From the NCBI GenBank assembly GCA_050945995.1, contig JBMNUA010000001.1:1-34862 (forward strand): a stretch of DNA of 34,862 nt. Direction: 5' to 3'. The translations under genes were made by a program, and so were the position numbers. The notes below the pieces were generated by a model. That model saw nothing but the letters and a program-made list of their open reading frames with translations, searched no databases and was not told the origin of the DNA. The stretch is from Christensenellales bacterium. GTDB taxonomy: Bacteria; Bacillota; Clostridia; Christensenellales; Aristaeellaceae. Of this stretch, positions 3,570 through 29,924 are shown one piece after another (within the stretch, counting starts at the first letter, position 1; every line of letters begins with the position of its first letter).

Positions 3570-4708
3570 TGGAGCGGCTGATACAGGAGGTTTCCCGCGT
3601 TTCGACGCCCGCCTTCGTGGTGGATGAGGGGCGGATCGCGCACAACCTTGCGATACTCAAGCGCGTGGCGGAGGAAGCCGGCTGCAAGATACTGCTGGCG
3701 CAGAAGGCGTTTTCGATGTTCGCGCTCTATCCGCTGATCGCACTATCGCTTGCGGGCACGACGGCGAGCGGGCTGTATGAAGCGCGGCTCGGGCGCGAGG
3801 AGATGGGGGGAGAGTCGCACATCTTCTCCCCCGCGTACACGGACGCGGAGTTTGACGAGGTGCTCGCAATCTGCGATCACATCGTATTCAACTCGTTTGC
3901 GCAATGGGCGCAGTTTCGGGAGCGGGCGCGCGCGTCCGGGCGGAGCTTCGGCATCCGCATCAACCCCATGCACTCCACGCAGGCGCATGCGATTTATGAC
4001 CCCTGCGCGCCGCACTCGCATCTGGGCGTGACGCGCGAGCACTTTCGGGAGGATTTGCTCGACGGCATCGAGGGGCTGCACTTTCATACGCTGTGCGAGC
4101 AGGGCGCGGACGCGCTGATCGAGACGCTCGCGGCGGTCGAGCGGCAGTTTGGCGCGTTCCTCCCGCGGATGAAGTGGGTGAACTTCGGTGGCGGGCACCA
4201 CATCACGCGCCCGGGCTATGACGTTGACGCGCTGATCGAATGCGTGCGCGGGTTTCGGGCGCGCTATGGTGTGGAGGCATACCTCGAGCCGGGCGAGGCG
4301 GTGGCGCTCAACGCGGGATTTCTGGTGGCGCGCGTGATCGACATCGTCGAAAACGGCATGGAGATCGCCATCCTCGACACTTCCGCCACCTGCCATATGC
4401 CGGATGTGATCGAGATGCCGTACCGTCCGCCGCTGTTTGGCGCGGCGGCAGCGGGGGAGCGGGCGCATACCTACCGGCTCGCAGGTCCGACCTGCTTGGC
4501 GGGGGATGTGATCGGCGATTATTCGTTCGACCGCCCGCTTGCGCCGGGCGACAAGCTGGTATTTGAGGATATGGCGATCTATACGATGGTAAAAACGAAC
4601 ACCTTCAATGGAATGCGCCTGCCGTCGATCTACCTGCGCGGCGCGGATGGGGGATTGCGACTCGTGCGCGCGTTCGGGTACGAGGATTTCAAAAACAGGC
4701 TTTCGTGA
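3569..4708 (+). CDS. nspC: Carboxy(nor)spermidine decarboxylase (alanine racemase-fold PLP decarboxylase)
   Basis: 379 aa. It is N-terminally similar to NspC (TPAFV.DE..I..N). The start overlaps the upstream stop (TGATG), indicating translational coupling. Confidence 0.85.
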   Translation: MERLIQEVSRVSTPAFVVDEGRIAHNLAILKRVAEEAGCKILLAQKAFSMFALYPLIALSLAGTTASGLYEARLGREEMGGESHIFSPAYTDAEFDEVLAICDHIVFNSFAQWAQFRERARASGRSFGIRINPMHSTQAHAIYDPCAPHSHLGVTREHFREDLLDGIEGLHFHTLCEQGADALIETLAAVERQFGAFLPRMKWVNFGGGHHITRPGYDVDALIECVRGFRARYGVEAYLEPGEAVALNAGFLVARVIDIVENGMEIAILDTSATCHMPDVIEMPYRPPLFGAAAAGERAHTYRLAGPTCLAGDVIGDYSFDRPLAPGDKLVFEDMAIYTMVKTNTFNGMRLPSIYLRGADGGLRLVRAFGYEDFKNRLS

Positions 4709-4749
4709 ACGGTGCGCCCCGCGCGGATTGCGCGGGGCGCGTAGTTTCC
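4613..4749 (+). repeat. Direct repeat copy 1: the last 31 codons of nspC, its stop codon and its terminator hairpin
   Basis: It matches 5881-6018 with about six substitutions and a 1-nt indel, by direct visual alignment. Confidence 0.9.
4714..4749 (+). terminator. Intrinsic terminator of the polyamine operon
   Basis: Perfect 11-bp GC stem GCGCCCCGCGC-GGATT-GCGCGGGGCGC. The following T tract is weak (GTAGTTTCC). Confidence 0.65.
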
Positions 4750-4761
4750 ATAGAGAGAGGG

Positions 4762-5736
4762 TTACTTTTCGCAAAAGCGGACATAACTAGTAAATGATAT
4801 ATTGATGCCTAATTCTCTTGCGAGATCTGCGATTAAGCTGTCATCATCATTTGTGCTCCAACCGCCGCTCACGATGCTATTTATTTTATGATAGCCGGCG
4901 AGTATCGTTTCTTCATATAAATCATCAAAAATATCTGGGCGTTTAGATTTTAACACCTCTTGGCAATTTACTGGCAGGGCAGCTAATGTCTCCTTCGTTA
5001 CAAACCCTGTTGAAGTAATGAGTATGCCGCCCGGTTTTAATACCCGATACGTTTCTTTTAATGCATTTCCGATGTTACCTTCCGCATTCCCGATCCCGCC
5101 GCCATCTGACACGACATCGATGCTATTATCGGTAAAAGGAATATCGCAGAAATCAAAGACGGCATAGTGGATATTGGGAGAGTTTATTTTTCGATCTAAA
5201 AGATGTTTCCATTCGCGCACGACGGTTGGTGAAAGGTCGTTGATGATAATTGCTGCATCTGGGTTGGCATGTAAGATATACGGCATAAAACCGCCACCGG
5301 GACCGGCGCCAACTTCGAGGATCAGTCCACCCCGCTCCGCAATCTGTCTACCAATGCAACTTCTAACTGGATTTGCATGGTGGATACTGGCATCCCAATT
5401 TCGAGCGATCCTTTTTTCCGATACGATACTATTTGTCCATTCGGCGTTTTCCTTGTGCTCGTGTTCTGGTAGGAAATAGGCGATTTCATCCATTTTGTAT
5501 TGGCTATTCACTATTTTTTCGAAGAAGTTATTTCCCACCAGTAAATCATTGATAGACACATGAAACAAATCGGATAATTGGAGCAATGATTCAAGCTCCG
5601 GTAATGCTGTGCCGCATTCCCATTTCGACACCGCCTGTGAAGTCACCCCGAGTTTCTCCGCTAATGCATCTTGTGTTACATTCAAGCTCTTGCGAAATGA
5701 GGTGATTCGCTTCCCGAAATGGACTTTGTTTATCAT
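4762..5736 (-). CDS. XRE-family helix-turn-helix domain fused to a class I SAM-dependent methyltransferase domain
   Basis: 324 aa from the ATG at 5736 (MINKVHFGKR...), which is preceded by GGAGGAACTGGT. The longer ORF start at 5805 lacks a ribosome-binding site. The N-terminus (LNVTQDALAEKLGVTSQAVSKWECG) is an HTH_3/XRE motif. The centre (LILEVGAGPGGG, IIINDLSP, LKPGGILI) matches methyltransferase motifs I, II and post-II. The gene is visibly AT-rich compared with its flanks. Confidence 0.8.
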   Translation of the reverse strand: MINKVHFGKRITSFRKSLNVTQDALAEKLGVTSQAVSKWECGTALPELESLLQLSDLFHVSINDLLVGNNFFEKIVNSQYKMDEIAYFLPEHEHKENAEWTNSIVSEKRIARNWDASIHHANPVRSCIGRQIAERGGLILEVGAGPGGGFMPYILHANPDAAIIINDLSPTVVREWKHLLDRKINSPNIHYAVFDFCDIPFTDNSIDVVSDGGGIGNAEGNIGNALKETYRVLKPGGILITSTGFVTKETLAALPVNCQEVLKSKRPDIFDDLYEETILAGYHKINSIVSGGWSTNDDDSLIADLARELGINISFTSYVRFCEK

Positions 5737-5880
5737 ACCAGTTCCTCCATCTTGAGATTTCAGCATAATTATATAGCAAAAAAAGATAGTATGGAAGCGA
5801 TGCACAATATAGTTTGCGCAGATGAATTCTACTATGGGTTGGGTCGTAAAGACCTTAATGAAATATAACTTTGATAACGG

Positions 5881-6018
5881 ATGCGCCTGCCGTCGATCTA
5901 CCTGCGCGGCGCGGATGGGGGATTGCGGCTCGTGCGCTCGTTCGGGTACGAGGATTTCAAAAACAGGCTTTCATGATCGGCGCGCCCCGCGCGGATTGCG
6001 CGGGGCGCGTGGTTTTCC
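5881..6018 (+). repeat. Direct repeat copy 2: an orphan relic of the nspC 3' end (still reads MRLPSIYLRGADGGLRLVRSFGYEDFKNRLS*) plus a second copy of the terminator hairpin (5982-6008)
   Basis: It aligns with 4613-4749. It has no upstream nspC body, so it is a gene-end fragment or pseudogene. Confidence 0.9.
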
Positions 6019-6055
6019 CGGGAAAACATATCATAAGGCGATGGAATATGAAAGG

Positions 6056-6094
6056 TATAAAAAATTGTGTCCGGCAATGATACCGCACACAATT
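6056..6094 (-). terminator. Intrinsic terminator downstream of the tRNA-Thr/tRNA-Pro pair
   Basis: On the minus strand, AATTGTGT..CGG/CCG..ACACAATT forms a hairpin followed by TTTTTTATAC. It begins 3 nt after the tRNA-Pro CCA end. Confidence 0.6.
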
Positions 6095-6096
6095 TC

Positions 6097-6173
6097 TGGT
6101 CGAGGTGACAGGATTTGAACCTGCGACCTTTTGGTCCCGAACCAAACGCGCTACCAAACTGCGCTACACCTCG
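6097..6173 (-). tRNA. tRNA-Pro (anticodon CGG), CCA encoded
   Basis: The reverse complement folds by hand into a cloverleaf: CGAGGTG/CACCTCG acceptor, GCGC/GCGC D stem, TTGG(T)/CCAAA anticodon stem with loop TTCGGGA, GCAGG-TTCAAAT-CCTGT T arm. Length 77 nt. Confidence 0.95.
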
Positions 6174-6176
6174 AAA

Positions 6177-6252
6177 TGGAGCCAATGAAGGGACTCGAAC
6201 CCTTGACCTGCGGTTTACGAAACCGCTGCTCTGCCAGCTGAGCTACATTGGC
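6177..6252 (-). tRNA. tRNA-Thr (anticodon CGT), CCA encoded
   Basis: The reverse complement is GCCAATG-TA-GCTC-AGCTGGC-AGAGC-A-GCGGT-TTCGTAA-ACCGC-AGGTC-AAGGG-TTCGAGT-CCCTT-CATTGGC-T-CCA. Length 76 nt. Confidence 0.95.
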
Positions 6253-6276
6253 ATTTACGACCGCCGACAGTTTAGA

Positions 6277-6306
6277 ATTATATCACAACAGGGGTGGATT
6301 TGTCCA
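6277..6306 (-). promoter_or_regulatory. Putative sigma-A promoter for the tRNA pair
   Basis: The minus strand reads TGGACA-18 nt-TATAAT, ending about 25 nt upstream of the tRNA-Thr 5' end. Confidence 0.4.
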
Positions 6307-6348
6307 GATGCCGCCGATCGGGTCGCGATATTTAACATTAGAATACTG

Positions 6349-6376
6349 TTGAGAACACATGCTTCGGTTGTATAAT
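6349..6376 (+). promoter_or_regulatory. Putative sigma-A promoter for pfkA-rlmD
   Basis: TTGAGA-16 nt-TATAAT, about 50 nt upstream of the pfkA ATG. Confidence 0.5.
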
Positions 6377-6428
6377 TTCATGTAGACGCAATGGCAAGCG
6401 AAACAAATGAAGGACTAGGAGAGATTTT

Positions 6429-7490
6429 ATGAAGCGTATAGGCGTACTCACCTCCGGCGGCGACGCGCCCGGCATGAACGCGGCGATCCGCTCGGTGGTC
6501 AGAACGGGGATGGGTCTGGGCATGTCGGTGATCGGGTTCAAGCGCGGGTACAACGGATTGTTGATGCGCAGCGACAATGAGCGCGACGATTTTGAAATCC
6601 TCACGTCCCGCAGCGTTTCCGATAAGGTGCACCGCGGCGGCACGTTTTTGATGACGGCGCGCTGCGCGGAGTTCATCGATCCGATCTACCAAAAGCGCGC
6701 GGTCGAAAACCTGCGCGCGCTCGGCATCGAAGGGCTCGTCGTCATCGGCGGCGACGGCACCTACCGCGGCGCGCAGGATCTGTGCGCCCTTGGGTTTCCG
6801 GCGATTGGCATCCCCGGAACGATCGACAACGACCTGAATTATACGGATTATACCATCGGCTTTGACACCGCCGTCAACACCGCCTGCGACGCTGTGAACC
6901 GCATCCGCGATACGAGCGACTCGCACGAGCGCGTCAGCCTCATCACCGTAATGGGCAGAAACTGCGGCGACATCGCACTCTACACCGCCGCGGCGTGCGG
7001 CGCGGAGCTGTTTATGATCCCCGAAGAGCCGTGGAGCTTGGAGGATATCGCCGAGCGCGTCAAGTGGGGCGTGCTTCGCGGCAAGCGCTCGATGATGATG
7101 GTGTTCGCCGAGGGCGCGCTCAAATCGCTCACGAGCGATACTGCCGCCATCATCGCGGGCAACCCGAATTTGAGCGATATGAGCGTCCATCATCTCACCA
7201 GCTCGCAGATCGCGCAGATCATCGAGGAATTGTCCGGTCAGGAAACGCGCGCGACCGTGCTCGGCTACATCCAGCGCGGCGGCAGCCCCTCCGCGCGCGA
7301 TCGCGTGCTCGCGACAAGGCTCGGCGCGTATGCAACCCAGCTATTGCGCGATGACGAGGGCGGGTGCGCGGTGGGCGTGCGCGGCGAACGGATGATCCAT
7401 GTGCCGCTTGCGGATACGCAGAAGGGCGAGCAGATGGAGCTTGGCGAGCTCAATAAATTAATCGGCGTGATGTCCTCCATGGCGCAATGA
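6429..7490 (+). CDS. pfkA: ATP-dependent 6-phosphofructokinase
   Basis: 353 aa. Motifs include the N-terminal MKRIGVLTSGGDAPGMNAAIR, then GGDG(T/S)..GA and PGTIDND. An AGGAG ribosome-binding site is present. Confidence 0.93.
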   Translation: MKRIGVLTSGGDAPGMNAAIRSVVRTGMGLGMSVIGFKRGYNGLLMRSDNERDDFEILTSRSVSDKVHRGGTFLMTARCAEFIDPIYQKRAVENLRALGIEGLVVIGGDGTYRGAQDLCALGFPAIGIPGTIDNDLNYTDYTIGFDTAVNTACDAVNRIRDTSDSHERVSLITVMGRNCGDIALYTAAACGAELFMIPEEPWSLEDIAERVKWGVLRGKRSMMMVFAEGALKSLTSDTAAIIAGNPNLSDMSVHHLTSSQIAQIIEELSGQETRATVLGYIQRGGSPSARDRVLATRLGAYATQLLRDDEGGCAVGVRGERMIHVPLADTQKGEQMELGELNKLIGVMSSMAQ

Positions 7491-8776
7491 CGCAAACGAT
7501 CGACATCACAGGCATCGGCTCTGACATGCAGGGCGTGGGCAGGCTGGCGGACGAGCGCGCGGTGTTCGTCCCCGGCGCGCTGCCGGGCGAGCGCGTCACG
7601 GTGCGCATCACGCGCGATGCGGGCAGGTTTTGCGAGGCGGAGCTGACCAAAGTGCTCGCGCCGTCCGCGCATCGGATTGCGCCGAATTGCCCGCATGACG
7701 GGGCTTGCGGCGGCTGCCGGATTCGGCACGCCGCGTATGACCATACCCTCGAATTAAAACGCATGCGCGTGGTAGACGCGCTAACGCGCATCGCCGGCAT
7801 TGAATCGCCCGCGGTGCGCGAGACCATCGGCTGCGAAACCCCCGACCGCGCGCGCAACAAGGCGGAGTACCCCATCCGCAATGGCGTGATCGGCATGTTC
7901 GCGGCGGGCGGCGCGCGGCTCGTGCCGATTGAGGATTGCCTGCTGCAAAGCGCGCAGAGCGTCGCCATCATGCGGCGCGCCGCCGAACTCCTCAAGGGCT
8001 CGAATGTGTCGGGCTGGCTCGTCACGCGCACGAATGCGCAGGGCGACGGCATGGCGATATTGAGCGCACAGGGCAAGCCGCCCGCGTGGCTGGATCGGCT
8101 CGCGGAAATCCCCGGCGTGCGTTCTATATGGCATTGCGCGCTCAAGCCTCGACCGACGCATGCGCTCGACGGCGCGATGCACCATGTTTGCGGCGAGCGC
8201 ACCATCCGCGAGACGCTCTGCGGTCTGGATTTTGACATCTCCCCGCAGACCTTTTTTCAAGTGAATACTGCGCAGGCGGAAATTTTATATGAGCGCGCAC
8301 TGGATGCGGCGGGACTGACTGATGAAAGCCGCGTGCTCGACGCCTATTGCGGATGCGGCACGCTCACGCTCGCGGCGGCGAAATACGCTCAAAGCGCGCT
8401 CGGTGTGGAGATTGTCGCCCCGGCGATTTCGGACGCGCGCAAAAACGCCGCGCGCAACCGCCTTGACCATAAGACGCGCTTTGTCTGCGCCGATGCCGGC
8501 GCGGAGATCCCGCACCTCGTGCGCGCGGGCGAGATGTTCGACCGCGTGATCGTCGATCCGCCGCGCAAGGGATGCGATCCCGCGCTGATCGAAGCGCTTG
8601 GGCTTCTCAAGCCCGAACGCATCGCCTATGTCTCCTGCGATCCCGCCACGCTCGCGCGCGATGTCAAGCGGCTGCGCGCACATGGGTATGGTTTGGCTTG
8701 GGCGCAGCCGGTGGATATGTTCCCGTGGACGGGGCATGTGGAGTGTGTGGTGTTGATGTCGAGGGAGCGGTATTGA
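7487..8776 (+). CDS. rlmD: 23S rRNA (uracil-C5)-methyltransferase, RlmD/RumA family (TRAM domain, Fe-S cysteines, SAM methyltransferase)
   Basis: 429 aa. It has a TRAM-like N-terminus (GxG..FVPGALPGE.V), a Cys cluster (C..C.GC), the FFQVN motif, LDAYCG.G and a C-terminal VDPPR.G...YVSC. The ATGA overlaps the pfkA stop. Confidence 0.85.
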   Translation: MTQTIDITGIGSDMQGVGRLADERAVFVPGALPGERVTVRITRDAGRFCEAELTKVLAPSAHRIAPNCPHDGACGGCRIRHAAYDHTLELKRMRVVDALTRIAGIESPAVRETIGCETPDRARNKAEYPIRNGVIGMFAAGGARLVPIEDCLLQSAQSVAIMRRAAELLKGSNVSGWLVTRTNAQGDGMAILSAQGKPPAWLDRLAEIPGVRSIWHCALKPRPTHALDGAMHHVCGERTIRETLCGLDFDISPQTFFQVNTAQAEILYERALDAAGLTDESRVLDAYCGCGTLTLAAAKYAQSALGVEIVAPAISDARKNAARNRLDHKTRFVCADAGAEIPHLVRAGEMFDRVIVDPPRKGCDPALIEALGLLKPERIAYVSCDPATLARDVKRLRAHGYGLAWAQPVDMFPWTGHVECVVLMSRERY

Positions 8777-8968
8777 TTTTACTTGGATTGCACGACAACA
8801 GCTAAATTATCTACTCGACCTAGCGTGTGTCTCTGCGTTTAAGTAAAATGTCGATTGAATCCATCCTAACCGCGCAAGCGGCTTAGCGGTCGAAATGAAC
8901 ATTCGCAAGATTGTGTGAACAGAGCATATATCAAGCTTCTGGGCAAACCGTCATTTGGAGGAGCGAAT

Positions 8969-9490
8969 ATGAGTACACGGATAAAACTTGCCGAAACGGC
9001 GAAGGAAAAAGCACGATTACCTTTCCATGGTTTTATAGAAGGAAAAGAGTCAAATATTCAACCGATAGTCAGCCTCTTTCCGAAATGGAACATACAAAGC
9101 GCCGATAGAATGTGGTGTGCTGGATTTGTTTATTATTGCTGTATTGAAGCAGGTTTTAAGATACCATACAGTCCGAAAGGCTGTGTATCGTGCAGTCTTG
9201 CCGGATGCGGTGGTTGGGAAGAATTTGCGCTGAAAGATAGTAGAATTGAATATCATCCACGAAGTGATCATGATTTTACCCCTGCGGCTGGTGACATTGT
9301 TCTTTACGACCATGTCTTTATAAATCGCGAACATGACCATATCGGAATCGTACTGGAAGATAAAACTGATTCTATTATTGTAGCAGAAGGAAACACATAT
9401 AATGATAATATTTCACGAATTCTTGAGCGTAAGAAGAATGAACATATCCGGGCGTATATCCGCATACCAAATGGTTACTCCCAGGACTAA
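8969..9490 (+). CDS. CHAP-domain (cysteine/histidine-dependent amidohydrolase/peptidase) protein with no signal peptide
   Basis: 173 aa from the ATG at 8969, which is preceded by GGAGGAGCGAAT. The candidate catalytic Cys lies in MWCAGFVYYC, the His in HDHIGIVLE, and AEGN follows. The N-terminus is hydrophilic. The gene is AT-rich. Confidence 0.75.
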   Translation: MSTRIKLAETAKEKARLPFHGFIEGKESNIQPIVSLFPKWNIQSADRMWCAGFVYYCCIEAGFKIPYSPKGCVSCSLAGCGGWEEFALKDSRIEYHPRSDHDFTPAAGDIVLYDHVFINREHDHIGIVLEDKTDSIIVAEGNTYNDNISRILERKKNEHIRAYIRIPNGYSQD

Positions 9491-9597
9491 GATATGATTT
9501 ATTAAAACATCAATCTGACGGTCTCATTTTATGTGGAGTGTAAAGTGTTGAGGTGGACAGCTGAATCACAAGTATTCTGTAAAAGGAGATCACCGAA

Positions 9598-10437
9598 ATG
9601 ATGATTGAGAGATACTACGGCATATCACCTGACATCGTGCAGCAGTTGATCGCCGCAACTAAGAACAAAGTAAATGATAGAAGCGGAGACAACCGATTCA
9701 AATCAACAAAGGTATTTTTATTTGACGAGTATGCTGTGCTAAGCATGCAGAACATGGATGTGCGAAATGTCGAGGTAAAGGATGTGGATTACAAGCATCT
9801 CGGGCGGTTATGCGAAACACTACTCGATTTACATACACAAGGAGTTCACGTTTTGCCCATACGCGCATTCCAAAGTGAGAACGGAAGCGGCTACATGGTG
9901 CAGCAACGGGCGAAAGGCGCGGAATTATATGAAAGAGACAAGTTGCTCGACAAACATTATATCTTAGGGCACGTCGCGCTTTTATCAAACGCGCCGCAAG
10001 CGTACTATGATAAGTTTGTCGCCGATGCCATAGCGATTATGGAAAAAGGCGTGCTTATCGACTTTGTGGGAAAAGACAATTTCTTTTATCACGAAGAGAT
10101 CGGCTTTCAGTTCATTGACCTTTATGCACACAACGATTATGTATACGGATTAACCGACATTAAACCGAATATCAAACAATTGGCGGCGCGCAACTGTTTC
10201 ATACCATGCTATTTTGATGCTGTGCCGACGCATCGCGACACGGTATCGAACGTGCTGTCCGAGCTTACGGAATGCGAGTGGAAATTATTGAAACAGCAGA
10301 ACGCGACCATATTTACTAAGTGCAAAACAGCATTGATCAAAAACGGCGTAGCGGAAAAAATGATCGATAAAATCATTTCGGATGATGGATTTATCCCACA
10401 GAAACATCAATTGGGATTGGATCGGAATCATTCATAA
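9598..10437 (+). CDS. Hypothetical protein with weak protein-kinase-like/phosphotransferase-like motifs
   Basis: 279 aa. An AAGGAG ribosome-binding site lies 9 nt upstream. The gene is AT-rich. GYMVQQRAKGAEL is hinge-like, LIDFVGKDNFFY is catalytic-loop-like and FQFIDLY is DFG-like, but no clear Gly-rich loop is present. Function is unassigned. Confidence 0.6.
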   Translation: MMIERYYGISPDIVQQLIAATKNKVNDRSGDNRFKSTKVFLFDEYAVLSMQNMDVRNVEVKDVDYKHLGRLCETLLDLHTQGVHVLPIRAFQSENGSGYMVQQRAKGAELYERDKLLDKHYILGHVALLSNAPQAYYDKFVADAIAIMEKGVLIDFVGKDNFFYHEEIGFQFIDLYAHNDYVYGLTDIKPNIKQLAARNCFIPCYFDAVPTHRDTVSNVLSELTECEWKLLKQQNATIFTKCKTALIKNGVAEKMIDKIISDDGFIPQKHQLGLDRNHS

Positions 10438-10582
10438 AAGGATGCACTTCCTCAATTAAAACCGTAGATCCGCCGACGATCCGGTAGCAGTTCATGATCA
10501 TGTTTCACCCTCATGTCCGCCACGACCCGATCCAAAGCCTGCTCCCGCTCCAATGACGCCAAATCATCATCCGTCCCTGCCA

Positions 10583-10624
10583 TAAAACAAACGCGCCGTC
10601 AATCGATTGCATCAATTGACGGCG
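10583..10624 (-). terminator. Intrinsic terminator of ssrA
   Basis: On the minus strand, the hairpin CGCCGTCAATTGATGCAATCGATTGACGGCG (10-bp stem) is followed by CGTTTGTTTTAT. It starts 8 nt after the tmRNA CCA end. Confidence 0.7.
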
Positions 10625-10631
10625 TGTGATC

Positions 10632-10981
10632 TGGTGGAGGTGCGGGGAGTTGAACCCCGGTCCGAAAGCCAGACGGCAAGAGCTTCTCCGAGCGCATTCC
10701 ATTATTTTACATTCCCTCTGCCGCACCGCAATGGACAGCGTTACGGGTTCAGTAGCTTCATAAAATCCCACCCGCCGCAAAGCTTACGCGGGCTGGTTCC
10801 CTGCTTTTGCAGCGCCGATTGCCTACGCCGCAGGAGGCTTAGGGTCGACGTTCGCGGACTAAGCCGCGAAAGCTACGTTTTCGTAGTTGTCAGTTCAATT
10901 ATTGTTCCCGTTGTCAGGCGGTACAGGGCCGCCGCTCGCTACTCCAGCAATCCGAACCCCCGTCGAAACCAGTACACCCCC
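10632..10981 (-). ncRNA. ssrA: tmRNA (SsrA)
   Basis: The reverse complement starts GGGGGTGTACTGGTTTCGACGGGG and ends GGACCGGGGTTCAACTCCCCGCACCTCCACCA. The acceptor GGGGGTG/CACCTCC includes the G3:U pair. The internal tag frame reads ...GAC AAC TAC GAA AAC GTA GCT TTC GCG GCT TAG (DNYENVAFAA*). It lies directly downstream of smpB. Confidence 0.95.
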
Positions 10982-10996: not shown

Positions 10997-11458
10997 TTAC
11001 CCCCTGCCCGCGAAGGCGCGCTCGATGTCGCGGTCCGTGTCGCGCTTTGCCATGTCGTCGCGCTTGTCGTAGAGCTTCTTTCCCTTGCAGAGCGCGATTT
11101 CCATCTTCATCCTACCATCTTTCAGGTACACGCTCAGCGGGATGATCGAAAACCCCTTCTGCATCACATCCGCCTGCAACCTGCGTATCTCATGCTTGTG
11201 CATGAGAAGCCTTTTGGGTCTGAGCGGATCGGTGTTCGCGTAACTGCCCTTCTCGTAGGGGCTGATGTGCATGTTCTGCACATATAGCTCGCCGCCGCGC
11301 ACGGCGACGAAGCTGTCGGCGAGGTTGCACTTGCCAAGGCGTATGGATTTGACCTCCGTGCCCTTCAACTCAACGCCCGCCTCCCAGGTCTCCAATACGA
11401 AGTAGTCGTGCCGCGCGCGGCGATTCCGGGCGACGACCTTGACGCCAGTCTGCCGCAT
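10997..11458 (-). CDS. smpB: SsrA-binding protein SmpB
   Basis: 153 aa from the ATG at 11458 (GGAGGG 6 nt upstream). Motifs include NRRARHDY, ETWEAG.EL.GTEVKS, PRKLL.HK.EI and the conserved C-terminal tail. Confidence 0.93.
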   Translation of the reverse strand: MRQTGVKVVARNRRARHDYFVLETWEAGVELKGTEVKSIRLGKCNLADSFVAVRGGELYVQNMHISPYEKGSYANTDPLRPKRLLMHKHEIRRLQADVMQKGFSIIPLSVYLKDGRMKMEIALCKGKKLYDKRDDMAKRDTDRDIERAFAGRG

Positions 11459-11493
11459 GCAACGCCCTCCTCGTTTCGATCCCTTGGACAATC

Positions 11494-27338: not shown

Positions 27339-27431
27339 CGGCGCGCATTACTCAAGCCGAACGCCTCAATGCTCCACCCGCCCGCGCTGCTCCCGGGCAT
27401 CGCGCAGGCTGCGGCGTGACCCGATGCAAAC
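27339..27431 (+). repeat. Degenerate relic copy of an internal segment of the recJ N-terminal coding region
   Basis: 27339-27416 aligns with 27716-27793 (..CTCAAGCCGAACGCCTC.ATGCT.CACCCGCCCGCGCTGCTC.CGGGCATCGCGCAGGCTGCGGCG). It is followed by CCCGATGCAAAC, which resembles the 3' end of the tandem unit. Confidence 0.8.
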
Positions 27432-27667
27432 ACGGAGGAAACCCATGCGGATTTTAAGCGGCGCAGGCTTTGAACTCCCCGCAGGCATGCCCGATACAAC
27501 CACGGAGGAAACCCATGCGAATTTTTAAGCAGCGAGAAGCGCGCGGCACAGACTTTGAACGTCCCACGGGCATGCCCGACGCAACCACGGAGGAAACCCA
27601 TGCGAATCTTTAAACAGCGCACGGCGCGCGGCACAGACTTTGAACGCCCAGCAGGCATGCCCGATGC
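27432..27667 (+). repeat. Three tandem units of the recJ ribosome-binding site, ATG and first ~20 codons. Unit A is 27432-27501, unit B is 27502-27586, and unit C (the authentic start) begins at 27587.
   Basis: Each unit begins ACGGAGGAAACCCATGCG(A/G)AT and ends GCATGCCCGA(T/C)(A/G)C. The ATGs are at 27445, 27515 and 27600. Confidence 0.9.
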
Positions 27668-29924
27668 GCTGCATCGGCTGCTCGTCGCGCGCGGCATCGG
27701 CTCGGTCGAGCAGGCGCGCGCGTTCCTCAAGCCGAACGCCTCGATGCTTCACCCGCCCGCGCTGCTCACGGGCATCGCGCAGGCTGCGGCGCGGCTGCGG
27801 CAGGCGGTCGGGGCGGGGGAGCGCATCTGCATATTCGGCGATTACGATGTGGACGGCGTGAGCGCCTCGGCAATCCTATCGCTCGCGCTCGGTGAAATGG
27901 GCGGCGAGTTCGAGGTATACCTCCCCTCGCGCCATGAGGAGGGCTATGGGCTGAACGAGCCCGCGGTGCGCGAGATCGCCGCGCGCTGCGCGCTTCTCGT
28001 CACGGTCGATTGCGGCATCACTTCCGCGCATCTCGTATCGCTCGCGAAGGATTTGGGACTCGATGTGATCGTGACAGACCACCACCGCCCGGACGCGATT
28101 TTGCCCGATTGCATCGTCGTCAATCCGCTCGTCGGCGATTACCCCGAACCGCAGCTCTGCGGCGCGGGCGTCGCCTTCAAACTCGCGGAGGAACTGCTCG
28201 GGCGCGACGCCGCGATGGCGTACATCGACCTCGCCGCGCTCGCGACCGTCGCGGACATTGTGCCGCTCACGGGCGAGAACCGCGCGATCGTGTCGCTCGG
28301 ATTGGACGCCATGAACAAGCATCCACGGCTCGGGCTCTCCATGCTGCGCGAGGTCGCCGCACTTTCTGAGAAGCCGTACACCGCGGGCATGCTCGGCTTC
28401 CAGATCGGACCGCGATTGAACGCTTCCGGCAGGATCGGCTCGGCGAAGCGCGCGTTCTCTCTTTTGACCACCAACTCGCCGGATGAAGCGCGCGCCCTCG
28501 CGTCCGAATTGAACGAGGAAAACACCGCGCGCAAAAAACTGGAGTCCGAAATCCTCGAGGATGCGCTTGCCCGGCTCACCGATCACGATTTCGTCGCCCG
28601 CCGCGCCATCGTGCTCGCGGGGGAGGACTGGAACAGCGGCGTGATTGGGCTCGCGGCATCGCGGCTCGCCGAGCGGTTCTACTGCCCCGCGATATTGATT
28701 TCACTTTCTGGCGATACGGGCGTCGGCTCGTGCCGCAGCATTCCGGGCGTGGACATCCACGCCGCGCTGTCCGCCGTACAGTCGCACCTCGTTCGATTCG
28801 GCGGGCATAAGCAGGCGGCGGGGCTTACGATTGCGCGCGAAAACATTGATGCGTTTCAAACCGCGCTCGATCAATATTTATCTGAAACCGTGGCCCCCGA
28901 ACAGTACCTCCCCGTCACCGAATACGACATGGACGCGCGCTTTGACGAGCTCGACCCGGTGTTTCTCTCCCTCATGGAATCCTTCGCGCCCACCGGCATG
29001 GGCAACCCCGCGCCGATCCTGCGCACGCGCGCGCAGGTGGTCGATGCGCGCCGGGTGGGGAAGGACGGCGCGCACCTGAGCCTTTCGCTCAACGACGGCA
29101 CGAACCGGCTGCGCGCCATCGCCTTTCGCGAGGGCGCGCGCGCCAGCCGCCTGTCGGGCGATGTCGATGTCCTCCACGCGCCCAAAATCAACCGCTTCGC
29201 AGGGCGCACGAGCGTCGAGCTGGAGGTTAGGGCGATCAAACCCGCCGGCGGCGCGGAATATTTGGCGCATGCCGCCCCGAACGATGCACTTTTTGCAGCA
29301 TTCTTAACAGAGATGCTCTATAATAGAACATATTCGGGCAAATCCGGCGCGCTCATCTCCCAAGACGAACTGTGCCGTATGCTCGCGGATCACCCGCAAG
29401 GCACGCTCATCATCGCCGCGGACGCGAATTGCGCATCCGAATTCTCGGATTTGGACGCCTTCCTCGGCGAATACCCCGACGACCCGCGCGCCTTTAACGC
29501 CGTTTGCCTCATGCCGGCGGGCGAAATCCCGCCCAATTATCGGCAGGTGATCTACGCGGGGATGCCCGCGCCCGACGGCTTCCGCGCGCTCGACTGCCCG
29601 CCCGCCGCGTGGCTCTCCGAGCTGCCCGGCATAGACGAGCTCCGGCGCGCCTACCTCGCCATGAAGCGGCTGCTCTCGCGCCCGCTCGTACGCCATTCGC
29701 TCCCGACTTTGGCGAAATCACTCACCGACGAATGCGCGCTCGGCATATGTTGCGCCATAGCGTGCACGCTCGCGCTCATCGATATGGAGCTGGTCGTGCA
29801 AACGGGCGATCAACGGCTCGCGCTCGGCAAGTTTCGGAAAGTAAACCCCATGGACGCCCCGGTGTTCCGCGCCATCACCGCGCTGAAAACAAAAGGCGGC
29901 ATGGAGGAATCAACGGATATCTAA
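27600..29924 (+). CDS. recJ: Single-stranded-DNA-specific exonuclease RecJ
   Basis: 774 aa from the ATG at 27600. Motifs include L.ARGI......FL.P, I.I.GDYDVDG.(S/T), the DHH motif (VTDHH) and the GGH.QAAG DHHA1 motif. Confidence 0.9.
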   Translation: MRIFKQRTARGTDFERPAGMPDALHRLLVARGIGSVEQARAFLKPNASMLHPPALLTGIAQAAARLRQAVGAGERICIFGDYDVDGVSASAILSLALGEMGGEFEVYLPSRHEEGYGLNEPAVREIAARCALLVTVDCGITSAHLVSLAKDLGLDVIVTDHHRPDAILPDCIVVNPLVGDYPEPQLCGAGVAFKLAEELLGRDAAMAYIDLAALATVADIVPLTGENRAIVSLGLDAMNKHPRLGLSMLREVAALSEKPYTAGMLGFQIGPRLNASGRIGSAKRAFSLLTTNSPDEARALASELNEENTARKKLESEILEDALARLTDHDFVARRAIVLAGEDWNSGVIGLAASRLAERFYCPAILISLSGDTGVGSCRSIPGVDIHAALSAVQSHLVRFGGHKQAAGLTIARENIDAFQTALDQYLSETVAPEQYLPVTEYDMDARFDELDPVFLSLMESFAPTGMGNPAPILRTRAQVVDARRVGKDGAHLSLSLNDGTNRLRAIAFREGARASRLSGDVDVLHAPKINRFAGRTSVELEVRAIKPAGGAEYLAHAAPNDALFAAFLTEMLYNRTYSGKSGALISQDELCRMLADHPQGTLIIAADANCASEFSDLDAFLGEYPDDPRAFNAVCLMPAGEIPPNYRQVIYAGMPAPDGFRALDCPPAAWLSELPGIDELRRAYLAMKRLLSRPLVRHSLPTLAKSLTDECALGICCAIACTLALIDMELVVQTGDQRLALGKFRKVNPMDAPVFRAITALKTKGGMEESTDI

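Follow-up and report, generated by a model that had tools for sequence, protein, structure and literature searches.

CIME-like elements are the att-flanked, integrase-less relics of integrative elements. A second kind of foreign insertion is found at the 3' end of ssrA, which is a well-documented integration site for both genomic islands and prophages (PMC3146451, PMC11915505); in elements of this type, such as the vcr islands of Dehalococcoides (PMC3146451), deviant DNA lies 3' of a single-copy ssrA. The islet we describe here, located at positions 8777–10450 of the window (our term for the whole 34,862-nt stretch of DNA analysed), likewise consists of deviant DNA on the 3' side of a single-copy ssrA. 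Unlike ssrA-targeted islands and prophages, however, it has neither a tyrosine integrase nor a duplicated ssrA 3' segment; it does not abut ssrA, as native DNA and the tmRNA terminator lie in between; its only repeat derives from rlmD rather than from ssrA; and at 1.7 kb it is far smaller than such elements, which usually extend over many kilobases. In our favoured reading, which we consider probable, the islet arose by the accretion of a little foreign DNA: its two accessory genes would be unconnected in function and would have arrived separately, at the 3' flank of rlmD and not at ssrA.

The islet is enclosed by two convergent native units, rlmD (rightward) and ssrA–smpB (leftward), with the features of the region arranged as follows:

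7487–8776, plus strand: rlmD-like 23S rRNA (uracil-C5) methyltransferase gene, native (Pfam TRAM and tRNA_U5-meth_tr)
8736–8762, plus strand: 27-nt imperfect direct repeat, left copy, formed by the last rlmD codons
8777–8968, plus strand: AT-rich non-coding leader from the rlmD stop to the CHAP start, without a terminator or significant structure
8969–9490, plus strand: ORF A, a 173-aa stand-alone CHAP (NlpC/P60-type Cys-His) protein (Pfam CHAP)
9531–9557, plus strand: 27-nt repeat, right copy, the rlmD 3' end in decayed form between ORF A and ORF B
9598–10437, plus strand: ORF B, 279 aa, of an unannotated family with a predicted protein-kinase-like fold (AF2/Foldseek)
10451–10593, no strand: spacer of native-like composition (GC ~0.55), from the foreign DNA to the tmRNA terminator
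10594–10624, minus strand: ssrA terminator (intrinsic), with a T-run after a stem of 14 bp
10632–10981, minus strand: tmRNA gene (ssrA), intact (ARAGORN; Rfam RF00023, 158.6 bits)
10997–11491, minus strand: smpB (Pfam SmpB, 3e-60)

The left border of the islet is the stop codon of the rlmD-like gene (GC 0.66, GC3 0.78), beyond which GC drops from ~0.65 to 0.31–0.50. Taken in 300-nt windows, GC is 0.61–0.69 within the interior of rlmD, 0.36–0.49 between ~8700 and 10500, and 0.56–0.61 thereafter; 100-nt windows place the fall at 8751–8801 and the rise at 10451, where GC goes from 0.43 to 0.55. At 500 nt, the mean for the whole window is 0.596 (sd 0.06), with the minimum of 0.386 found inside the islet. 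Tetranucleotide usage agrees with this picture: the islet is the strongest outlier of the window (L1 distance versus the whole window 0.593, z 4.8), the four highest distances all belonging to windows that overlap it. The sharp drop after the rlmD stop and the recovery at ~10450 on which the original prediction was built are therefore confirmed, and so is its claim of horizontal acquisition, as the GC3 of ORF A (0.33) and ORF B (0.52) also deviates from that of most native genes (0.70–0.85): the islet DNA is foreign. That the two values are themselves unequal fits different donors, or different times of arrival.

As had also been stated, the coding content of the islet amounts to two credible ORFs on the same (plus) strand, each with a good ribosome-binding site of its own, and profile searches detected no integrase or excisionase gene, either among the islet ORFs or in the neighbouring genes, which are housekeeping in nature. 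The 10451–10593 spacer contains one 43-codon ORF (10452–10583, minus strand), which has no ribosome-binding site. Within the intergenic DNA of the islet we found no terminator structures beyond those of shuffled sequences and no attC-like palindromes, the segments folding as shuffles do (z −1.0 to +0.2; a weak, folding-only test). On the far side, the tmRNA gene matches RF00023 over its full length (model positions 1–374).

Relatives of this RlmD reach at most 59% identity among GTDB species representatives, and 74% in a search of 5.8 billion proteins. Those with 52–74% identity retain the pfkA–rlmD arrangement (together with tRNA-Pro/Thr where the contig reaches that far), and the DNA that follows rlmD differs in each; none has a tmRNA gene downstream of rlmD within up to 8 kb. 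Two of the three closest genomes (L164 and L167) have AT-rich DNA directly after rlmD, the first 0.5–1.5 kb having a GC of 0.34–0.41 and carrying other cargo. The variable site in this clade is the 3' flank of rlmD, and it is for this reason that the position of the islet beside ssrA is misleading. Among the RlmD relatives no empty rlmD–ssrA site was found, ssrA lying near rlmD in none of them, and with the best of them at 74% identity we read the acquisition history from composition and one short, decayed repeat only.

Of the 27 positions of that repeat, 22 are identical in the two copies. No other local alignment of the rlmD 3' end with the islet is better, and none of 300 dinucleotide shuffles reaches its score (p<1/300); given its short length and a correction for six comparisons, its significance is moderate only. 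A remnant of the rlmD 3' end in the spacer that separates the two ORFs could reflect two insertions, one after the other, an order of events which, like the mechanism of insertion itself, we infer.

The window holds a second AT-rich islet at ~4748–5880, meaning that the first is not its lone AT-rich stretch. This second islet comprises a single gene bracketed by a 135-nt duplication (96% identity) of the 3' end of an nspC-like gene; the 22/27 repeat of rlmD parallels this clean duplication. The second islet clearly shares with CIME-like elements an arrangement in which short cargo lies between direct repeats of a host-gene 3' end, with no recombinase; the CHAP gene may share it too, through its 27-nt repeat (22/27). 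Against this likeness, no repeat flanks the rlmD–ssrA islet in its entirety, that of the CHAP gene is short and decayed, and we identified no helper element or matching integrase.

The first of the two genes was described at the outset as encoding a leaderless CHAP-domain protein, and this holds: the match to Pfam CHAP (PF05257) is above cut-off (30.5 bits versus 26; E = 5e-7), and the N-terminus of ORF A is not hydrophobic and has no signal peptide. We place its start at ATG 8969, with GGAGGA 6 nt upstream and homologues of 172–173 aa. Homologues as a whole make up more than 410 clusters (172–190 aa, 61–81% identity), the named sources being Lachnospiraceae MAGs, Anaerocolumna, Anaerosporobacter and Scatolibacter. 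Residues C50, H124, E140 and N142 are invariant across 35 of them, C50 sitting in a WCA motif at the start of a helix (residues 50–61) in the AF2 model. This model (pLDDT 90) has a papain-like alpha+beta fold, for which Foldseek returns the CHAP domains 4csh, 8xyf and 5d74 (probability 1.0) as well as the E. coli Gsp amidase (3a2z; probability 0.98). Sequence and model together thus predict a cytoplasmic CHAP enzyme with its catalytic residues intact.

ORF A would act as an intracellular CHAP-type cysteine amidase or acyl-hydrolase, in which Cys50 attacks an amide bond, His124 serves as the general base, and Glu140/Asn142 orient His124; its likely substrate would be a cytoplasmic small molecule or muropeptide-type amide, rather than the cell wall approached from outside. 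The catalytic residues and fold are those of the CHAP family at large (PF05257; LysK CHAPK, PlyGRCS, Gsp amidase). Where it differs from the CHAP domains of phage endolysins is in its size of 173 aa and in lacking a signal peptide, a cell-wall-binding domain and an accompanying holin; it also differs from known CHAP proteins in an additional Cys cluster that is invariant across the family at C57, C58, C72 and C80 and nearly so at C75, and in the setting of its relatives, which are chromosomal, stand-alone genes in enzyme arrays, without a fixed partner. Their direct neighbours are GNATs, or an APH together with a UbiE-type methyltransferase. In location and likely class of substrate, ORF A resembles the intracellular Gsp amidase more than it does the lysins. 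A literature search for earlier descriptions of a cytoplasmic CHAP family in arrays of this kind produced nothing relevant.

ORF B, preceded by AAGGAG 9 nt upstream, was initially presented as a protein of unknown family, and profile searches of Pfam, PHROG and NCBIfam indeed return no match; the best hit from a sequence search of the PDB is at chance level (E 0.79). Its homologues form 85 clusters, all of them unnamed or ‘hypothetical’, the few with a taxonomic label coming from Oscillospiraceae and Defluviitaleaceae MAGs; a wider search gathers 363 representatives at E<=1e-3, the family comprising ~360 clusters at 50% identity, mostly from Clostridia in metagenome assemblies. The AF2 model is bilobal (pLDDT 84, pTM 0.83), and its top Foldseek matches in both the PDB and BFVD are all kinases (probability 0.99–1.0, TM 0.35–0.5). 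Based on this model, we assign ORF B to a Pfam-less family with a protein-kinase-like fold, the bilobal form of which it shares with APH, eukaryotic-like Ser/Thr kinases and the kinase domains of class III lanthipeptide synthetases. Across 103 family sequences, down to ~20% identity, conservation of D155, N161 and D174 is 90% or higher, in a pattern comparable with the Asp...Asn...Asp of the kinase superfamily; the Asn-to-Asp spacing of +13 is as in kinases, and the spacings from the putative catalytic-loop Asp are +6 to Asn and +19 to Asp, against +5/+18 in canonical kinases. Residues 159–162, which lie within this loop, have a pLDDT below 50.

Saying this, the resemblance to the kinase superfamily is a distant one: TM-scores reach only ~0.4–0.5, and none of the curated kinase profiles (Pkinase, APH etc.) matches ORF B significantly. 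There are weak sequence matches to the kinases MELK, CDPK and STK11, and within the family Pfam detects APH in 2 of 41 members (E = 0.087) and ABC1 in 1 of 103 (E = 0.007). In comparison with canonical kinases, ORF B also lacks both the beta3 Lys and the alphaC acidic residue, neither of which is invariant in the family: position 49 is Ser, where 53 of 66 close homologues and none of the distant tier have Lys, and position 69 is Gly, where ~90% of the family has Glu or Asp. With these two substitutions, and departures from the family at 11 of 83 conserved columns, the ORF B of this window may be catalytically impaired. As a divergent protein-kinase-like enzyme, ORF B would use ATP to phosphorylate a small molecule or peptide, with Asp155 in the catalytic loop and Asn161 and Asp174 binding metal.

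The profile of ORF B finds only four SmpB entries by sequence in the PDB (E 0.4–0.7, residues ~51–127). A kinship with SmpB, an intriguing thought for a gene so close to ssrA–smpB, was rejected, hhalign giving a probability of 3.6% against the SmpB of the window and no family member matching Pfam SmpB. Sixteen relatives of ORF B are long, multi-domain proteins; 15 of these have no Pfam domain and one has PhageMin_Tail.

Of 106 immediate neighbours of ORF B homologues 17 are GNATs, and one natural ORF B–GNAT fusion was found, an association that recalls the bifunctional AAC-APH resistance enzymes. In one lineage the gene is flanked by a Cys-rich precursor peptide on one side and by a radical-SAM/PqqD pair on the other, in what resembles a RiPP cluster. 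At three loci (L070, L071 and L082) a ~285-aa GNAT stands directly upstream, with a full-length identity of 80–90%, and in L074, L078 and L105 the same position is taken by related copies that are partial or shorter; as other types of GNAT adjoin homologues elsewhere, we rejected it as a specific, conserved partner, and it probably reflects synteny among close relatives. ORF B homologues usually have a lower GC than their flanks, in independent contigs, a pattern that speaks for mobility of the gene on its own: one between a PfkB kinase and a KDPG aldolase has a GC of 0.44 against 0.60, and those in loci L122–L127 have 0.44 against 0.58–0.66. A comparison of upstream with downstream flanks at 52 loci detected no flanking repeats other than a single low-complexity, A-rich match.

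The GNAT neighbours, the fusion and the radical-SAM/PqqD lineage could point to cooperation between ORF B and GNATs. They form part of a broader scenario, which we offer tentatively and regard as rather unlikely when taken as a whole: that the family represents undescribed kinase-fold enzymes working with GNATs as a new class of modifiers of small molecules or peptides, that it spreads into GC-rich genomes as a single AT-rich gene, and that this genome captures single foreign genes without a resident integrase at the 3' ends of native genes facing t(m)RNA genes, duplicating the 3' end of the target as it does so (135 nt for the nspC-like gene, a decayed 27 nt for rlmD).

What, then, of the two genes as a pair? 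The original prediction had proposed, as one option, a compact, horizontally acquired module (toxin/immunity, anti-phage or small-molecule-modifying). With the assignments made here, a module acquired as a unit could be a CHAP amidase toxin with a kinase-fold immunity protein or regulator, an anti-phage pair, or a small-molecule pathway of two steps, one phosphorylating and one hydrolysing an amide. The two ORFs share a strand, and the 107 bp that separate them contain no terminator; they are for this reason probably co-transcribed here, each having its own ribosome-binding site; both families are found among small-molecule-modifying genes, and an analogous adjacency of CHAP and kinase fold recurs in one Lachnospiraceae lineage, where a kinase-fold APH gene ends 13 nt upstream of the CHAP homologue. 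Searches with tblastn and profile HMMs, however, found no CHAP homologue at any of 88 ORF B loci (for 55 of them the upstream sequence extends to 800 bp or more) and no ORF B relative at any of 26 CHAP loci drawn from five distinct contexts; the spread of the two families is also unequal, with more than 410 clusters against 85. Given this lack of conserved adjacency, which the original prediction had itself named as grounds for rejecting a module, the module is largely refuted, and we consider that it has little chance of being correct. The difference in GC3 between the two genes and the relic of the rlmD 3' end that separates them speak against it too, as do the high conservation, cytoplasmic location and partnerless state of the CHAP homologues, which misfit a toxin requiring an immunity gene. 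The APH neighbour of the CHAP homologues was considered as a hidden relative of ORF B and discarded (hhalign probability 0.3%).

The defence-related forms of the proposal fared no better: PADLOC yields no credible match in the islet, its one hit, of ORF B to DpdC, being at chance level (E 0.029), and the neighbouring genes are metabolic, GNAT or housekeeping genes, not those of a defence island. Of the small-molecule-modifying pair one part survives, weakly, in that both families occur in GNAT/APH/methyltransferase arrays; they do so as independent members and not as a pair. Probable co-transcription here, and the proximity of CHAP and APH in Lachnospiraceae arrays, make it conceivable that a CHAP amidase and an enzyme of kinase fold are loosely connected in function. 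As ORF A and ORF B are never together elsewhere, we take the islet to be an ordinary accretion and not a new two-gene system.

The second alternative, also put forward originally, holds that the islet is what remains of an island or prophage formerly inserted in the 3' end of ssrA, having lost its integrase, its att repeat and nearly all of its cargo, with the CHAP gene as a relic of its lysis module. The documented use of ssrA as an integration site and the location of the islet on its 3' side are consistent with this, as are weak PHROG endolysin matches of ORF A (phrog_21357, 7e-9) and a distant ORF B relative that forms a domain of a 2469-aa protein together with a phage tail tape-measure-type domain. 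The PHROG matches, however, cover the generic CHAP domain only, and the close homologues of ORF A are the chromosomal genes of enzyme arrays described above. The islet contains no holin, cell-wall-binding domain or other phage gene beside ORF A, and no excisionase or integrase. By tblastn, neither protein has a match in 50,697 phage genomes or in 72,556 plasmids, and for ORF B the IMG/VR database gives one fair match (36% identity, partial) and four weak ones, mostly partial as well.

The absence of a tmRNA-derived att repeat was correctly called: repeat scans, shuffle-controlled alignments and blastn with the 3' 89 nt of the tmRNA gene reveal no duplicate of its 3' end, either in the islet or in the whole window, the best match there being a 12-nt exact one that is not beyond chance. 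Integration at ssrA would, in addition, place foreign DNA against the gene, whereas here ~180 bp of native composition (10451–10631), including the tmRNA terminator, separates the two; and the rlmD flank of relatives varies without a tmRNA gene nearby. An eroded ssrA element, and with it a lysis-module origin for the CHAP gene, is thus improbable. Least credible of all is an artefact of metagenome assembly, in which a high-GC contig received low-GC DNA of a different organism: the shift in composition is abrupt and the proteins of the window are found in this one contig only, but an independent Logan assembly (L185, run SRR31066156) matches positions 7951–9596 with a single mismatch and, by spanning it, shows that the rlmD-to-CHAP junction is not a chimera (the contig, ending at 9596, covers this junction and not that of ORF A/ORF B or at ~10450), no long exact repeats lie at either islet border to mislead an assembler, AT-rich ORF B homologues are found within GC-rich flanks on several contigs from other samples and sources, and AT-rich DNA directly after rlmD is also present in L164 and L167.

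Returning to separate arrivals at the rlmD 3' flank, we propose that foreign DNA accreted between the convergent rlmD and ssrA–smpB units, with ORF A and ORF B most likely entering in separate events. Both families would circulate among Clostridia as single genes, hosted by variable, same-strand arrays of GNAT acetyltransferases, APH kinases, methyltransferases, and HAD and NUDIX hydrolases; the adjacency of the two genes in this genome would then be incidental.

Considered as a genomic feature, the islet is ordinary: a tiny acquired patch in a permissive zone between convergent terminators. It nevertheless points to an intracellular CHAP enzyme that is widespread, very well conserved and marked by an invariant Cys cluster, and the Pfam-less ORF B family, with its recurrent link to GNATs and its tendency to stand alone, AT-rich, in genomes of high GC, is a reasonable target for biochemistry. 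Taken together, both islets of the window offer a concrete example of integrase-less, single-gene insertions accompanied by duplicated host-gene 3' ends.

Following the base composition rightwards along the window, we see that GC content (300-nt windows) falls from 0.61–0.69 in the rlmD-like gene to 0.36–0.49 between approximately 8700 and 10500 and then returns to 0.56–0.61; in 100-nt windows the drop lies at 8751–8801 and the rise at 10451. Over the entire 34.9 kb (500-nt windows; mean 0.596, sd 0.06) the minimum, 0.386, falls inside the islet, which is also the top outlier for tetranucleotide deviation (L1 distance 0.593, z = 4.8). The compositional anomaly is genuine and its borders are sharp; windowed GC confirms the fall and recovery described in the original prediction, which had also correctly positioned rlmD and tmRNA. 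The features concerned are:

7487–8776, rlmD-like ORF
8969–9490, plus strand, ORF A, a 173-aa CHAP protein; true start ATG at 8969, matching its 172–173-aa homologues
9598–10437, plus strand, ORF B, a 279-aa protein
10594–10624, intrinsic terminator of the tmRNA
10632–10981, minus strand, tmRNA
10997–11491, smpB

As predicted, the islet holds two credible ORFs, each preceded by a Shine-Dalgarno sequence, and searches of it for a recombinase or a second copy of the tmRNA 3′ end found neither. The left junction is not chimeric, since an independently assembled Logan contig (SRR31066156_851816) matches window positions 7951–9596 with one mismatch. This contig ends 2 nt upstream of the ORF B start codon, just past a 27-nt rlmD-like repeat; that it stops there could be a coincidence, or the assembly graph could branch between ORF A and ORF B through polymorphism in the population. 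On the minus strand, beginning right after the tmRNA terminator, a 43-codon ORF (MAGTDDDLASLEREQALDRVVADMRVKHDHELLPDRRRIYGFN; 10452–10583) of native-like GC and without a ribosome-binding site is probably a gene remnant or non-coding spacer.

On balance, we favour a reading in which the islet comprises two separately acquired accessory genes, juxtaposed by chance in a permissive zone 3′ of rlmD; of the interpretation originally offered, foreign DNA stands, whereas the lysis relic and the module do not, and targeting of ssrA probably does not. That the two genes form a compact module is rejected, ORF A and ORF B never being neighbours at the other loci collected. No CHAP homologue was found at any of 88 ORF B-homologue loci (55 with at least 800 bp upstream; tblastn and CHAP profile HMM), and no ORF B-family member at any of 26 loci with close CHAP homologues (five distinct contexts), even with the family HMM at E ≤ 1; after the nearest CHAP homologue (81% identity) comes a HAD-like gene. 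Third-position GC also differs (ORF A 0.33 vs ORF B 0.52). The original prediction had itself proposed to abandon the module should the pair not co-occur elsewhere, and this is what we find.

The 3′ end of ssrA, initially suspected as the integration site, is probably not the target: approximately 180 bp of native-composition DNA, including the tmRNA's own terminator, separates the foreign DNA from ssrA, and it is the DNA after rlmD that varies among relatives. In Christensenellales-like MAGs whose RlmD is 52–74% identical, the pfkA-rlmD pair is kept and so, on contigs long enough to include them, are the tRNA-Pro/tRNA-Thr genes upstream; the DNA 3′ of rlmD differs in each, with no tmRNA gene downstream in up to 8 kb. 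At these distances none of the relatives shows an empty rlmD–ssrA site. In this clade, therefore, we take the rlmD 3′ flank to be a landing pad whose content varies. Of the three closest relatives, two have AT-rich DNA (GC 0.34–0.41 vs 0.66) directly after rlmD, with unrelated cargo:

L164 (a relative's contig), 5470–7000, AT-rich DNA encoding a 385-aa protein that matches nothing in Pfam
L167 (another relative's contig), 9275–9800, AT-rich DNA with tiny ORFs

Two or three serine-recombinase genes lie 3–6 kb downstream in L164, and in L167 a tyrosine integrase adjoins tRNA-Pro. An ssrA island or prophage/lysis-module relic is further disfavoured by the failure to find an integrase or att repeat, and by the lack of any match for either protein among 50,697 phage genomes and 72,556 plasmids; IMG/VR yields just a few weak matches.

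How the two genes arrived may be hinted at by repeats. The final codons of rlmD (8736–8762) reappear, with 22 of 27 positions matching, in the ORF A/ORF B spacer (9531–9557). No other stretch of the islet aligns better locally with the rlmD 3′ end, the match beats 300 of 300 dinucleotide shuffles, and the spacer copy is closer to its own genome's rlmD than to those of relatives. Bracketing ORF A only, the repeat is a possible insertion scar. A second AT-rich islet (GC 0.41–0.49, GC3 0.43) occupies a junction involving convergent tRNA genes:

4613–4747 and 5881–6015, 135-nt direct repeat, 96% identical
about 4748–5880, second islet
4762–5805, minus strand, its sole gene, HTH_3 plus UbiE-type SAM-methyltransferase

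The left copy consists of the last 96 nt of the upstream nspC-like decarboxylase gene plus its terminator hairpin, and the right copy stops 81 nt short of the tRNA-Pro 3′ end (6097–6173, minus strand). No recombinase was found across 4613–6015. The structure resembles the insertion of a single gene flanked by att sites and lacking an integrase. Taken together, the two repeats suggest that both islets may have formed by sequential single-gene insertions without an integrase, each of which would duplicate the 3′ end of its target gene, whether as att-flanked relics or Campbell-type events. For the islet studied here the basis is one short decayed repeat, and like flanking repeats were not seen around ORF B homologues at other loci. 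Elsewhere, self-BLAST of the window reveals diverged direct repeats at 27341–27791 (76 nt, 93% identity, 27341–27416 and 27716–27791, with tandem-like copies of about 70–90 nt at 76–79% identity between them); the set lies right before a 789-aa ORF (27555–29924) and extends into its beginning.

ORF A exceeds the Pfam CHAP threshold and belongs to a large and strongly conserved family of more than 410 clusters (90% identity), listed homologues being 61–81% identical to it and the named ones coming from Lachnospiraceae MAGs, Anaerocolumna, Anaerosporobacter and Scatolibacter. Every aligned member is short, stand-alone and without a signal peptide. Cys50, His124, Glu140 and Asn142 are invariant, and the AF2 model (pLDDT 90) resembles phage-lysin CHAP domains as well as E. 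coli glutathionylspermidine amidase, itself intracellular; we predict that ORF A acts inside the cell as a cysteine amidase or acyl-hydrolase. The alignment further reveals a cysteine cluster (C57, C58, C72 and C80 invariant, C75 nearly so), which with H122 and H124 suggests a candidate redox site or a site for a metal (Zn or Fe-S), of a kind not known from other CHAP domains.

Searches of Pfam, PHROGs, NCBIfam, PADLOC and PDB sequences yield nothing significant for ORF B, and its 85 homologues are all unnamed or ‘hypothetical’. With a profile, 363 relatives were detected at E ≤ 1e-3 among 1.84 billion representatives; among the 119 scanned against Pfam (103 of single-domain length, 16 longer and multi-domain), none matched a kinase or other informative family save for a single weak ABC1 match and a phage tail domain that lies in a separate part of a giant protein. 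Two distant relatives containing an ORF B-type domain are indeed giants (P0313, 2469 aa; P0325, 4358 aa), the former with a C-terminal phage minor-tail/tape-measure domain (PF10145). Confidence in the AF2 model is high (pLDDT 84, pTM 0.83), and its top Foldseek matches in the PDB and BFVD are all protein kinases or their relatives (probability 0.99–1.0, TM-score 0.35–0.5), including MSK1, STK17B, the BIR2 pseudokinase, APH(3′)-IIIa, homoserine kinase and class III lanthipeptide synthetase kinase domains; a broad profile gives marginal sequence matches to MELK, CDPK and STK11, covering the N-lobe to the DFG region. Conservation of Asp155, Asn161 and Asp174 stays at 90% or above in homologues as distant as ~20% identity, and the spacing of these residues (+6/+19) is near that of the kinase catalytic-loop/DFG pattern (+5/+18). 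We infer a phosphotransferase-type enzyme. That said, the window's copy carries Ser49 in place of the Lys of most close homologues and Gly69 in place of the Glu/Asp found in ~90%, departing from the family at 11 of 83 conserved columns (sixth of 84), and so could be impaired.

Both families reside in variable arrays of small enzymes, mostly on the same strand. Among the 106 genes directly adjoining dereplicated ORF B homologues are 17 for GNAT acetyltransferases of several types, five for HTH_3 proteins and two for APH phosphotransferases; one contig (L079:210–2927, plus strand) has a continuous 905-aa ORF in which an ORF B-family domain at the N-terminus is joined to a GNAT domain (Acetyltransf_3, residues 294–442), with ~460 unannotated residues after it. 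In one lineage (loci L005–L008), to which this arrangement is restricted, a 37% identical homologue (P0077) is flanked by genes for a 43-aa Cys-rich peptide (MKYVKPMVTIYDEEVMKEIEAAAASTCHCSSGYSRICYAPTFG) and a radical-SAM protein; beyond the latter lie genes encoding a PqqD-like protein, an unknown 277-aa protein, an ABC transporter and an S24-like peptidase. The arrangement resembles a RiPP cluster whose tailoring enzyme has a kinase fold. CHAP homologues, for their part, lie directly behind one or two GNATs, have an APH gene on one side and a UbiE-type methyltransferase on the other inside a long GNAT/NUDIX/HAD/phosphatase array, or adjoin MFS and beta-lactamase-fold genes. In independent assemblies the GC of ORF B homologues is usually below that of their flanks, for example 0.44 vs 0.60 at 6001–6804 of contig k141_2366943 and relatives (L001/L086), which indicates repeated single-gene transfer. 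That homologue lies 4 nt behind a PfkB sugar-kinase gene and 14 nt ahead of a KDPG-aldolase gene, in what looks like the interior of a kdgK-eda operon.

Given this shared type of neighbourhood, ORF A and ORF B are independent members of one ecological pool of accessory modifying enzymes. The islet as a whole is an ordinary genomic feature; what is of most interest is the unannotated kinase-fold family of ORF B with its GNAT association and, second to this, a conserved intracellular CHAP family carrying a cysteine cluster.
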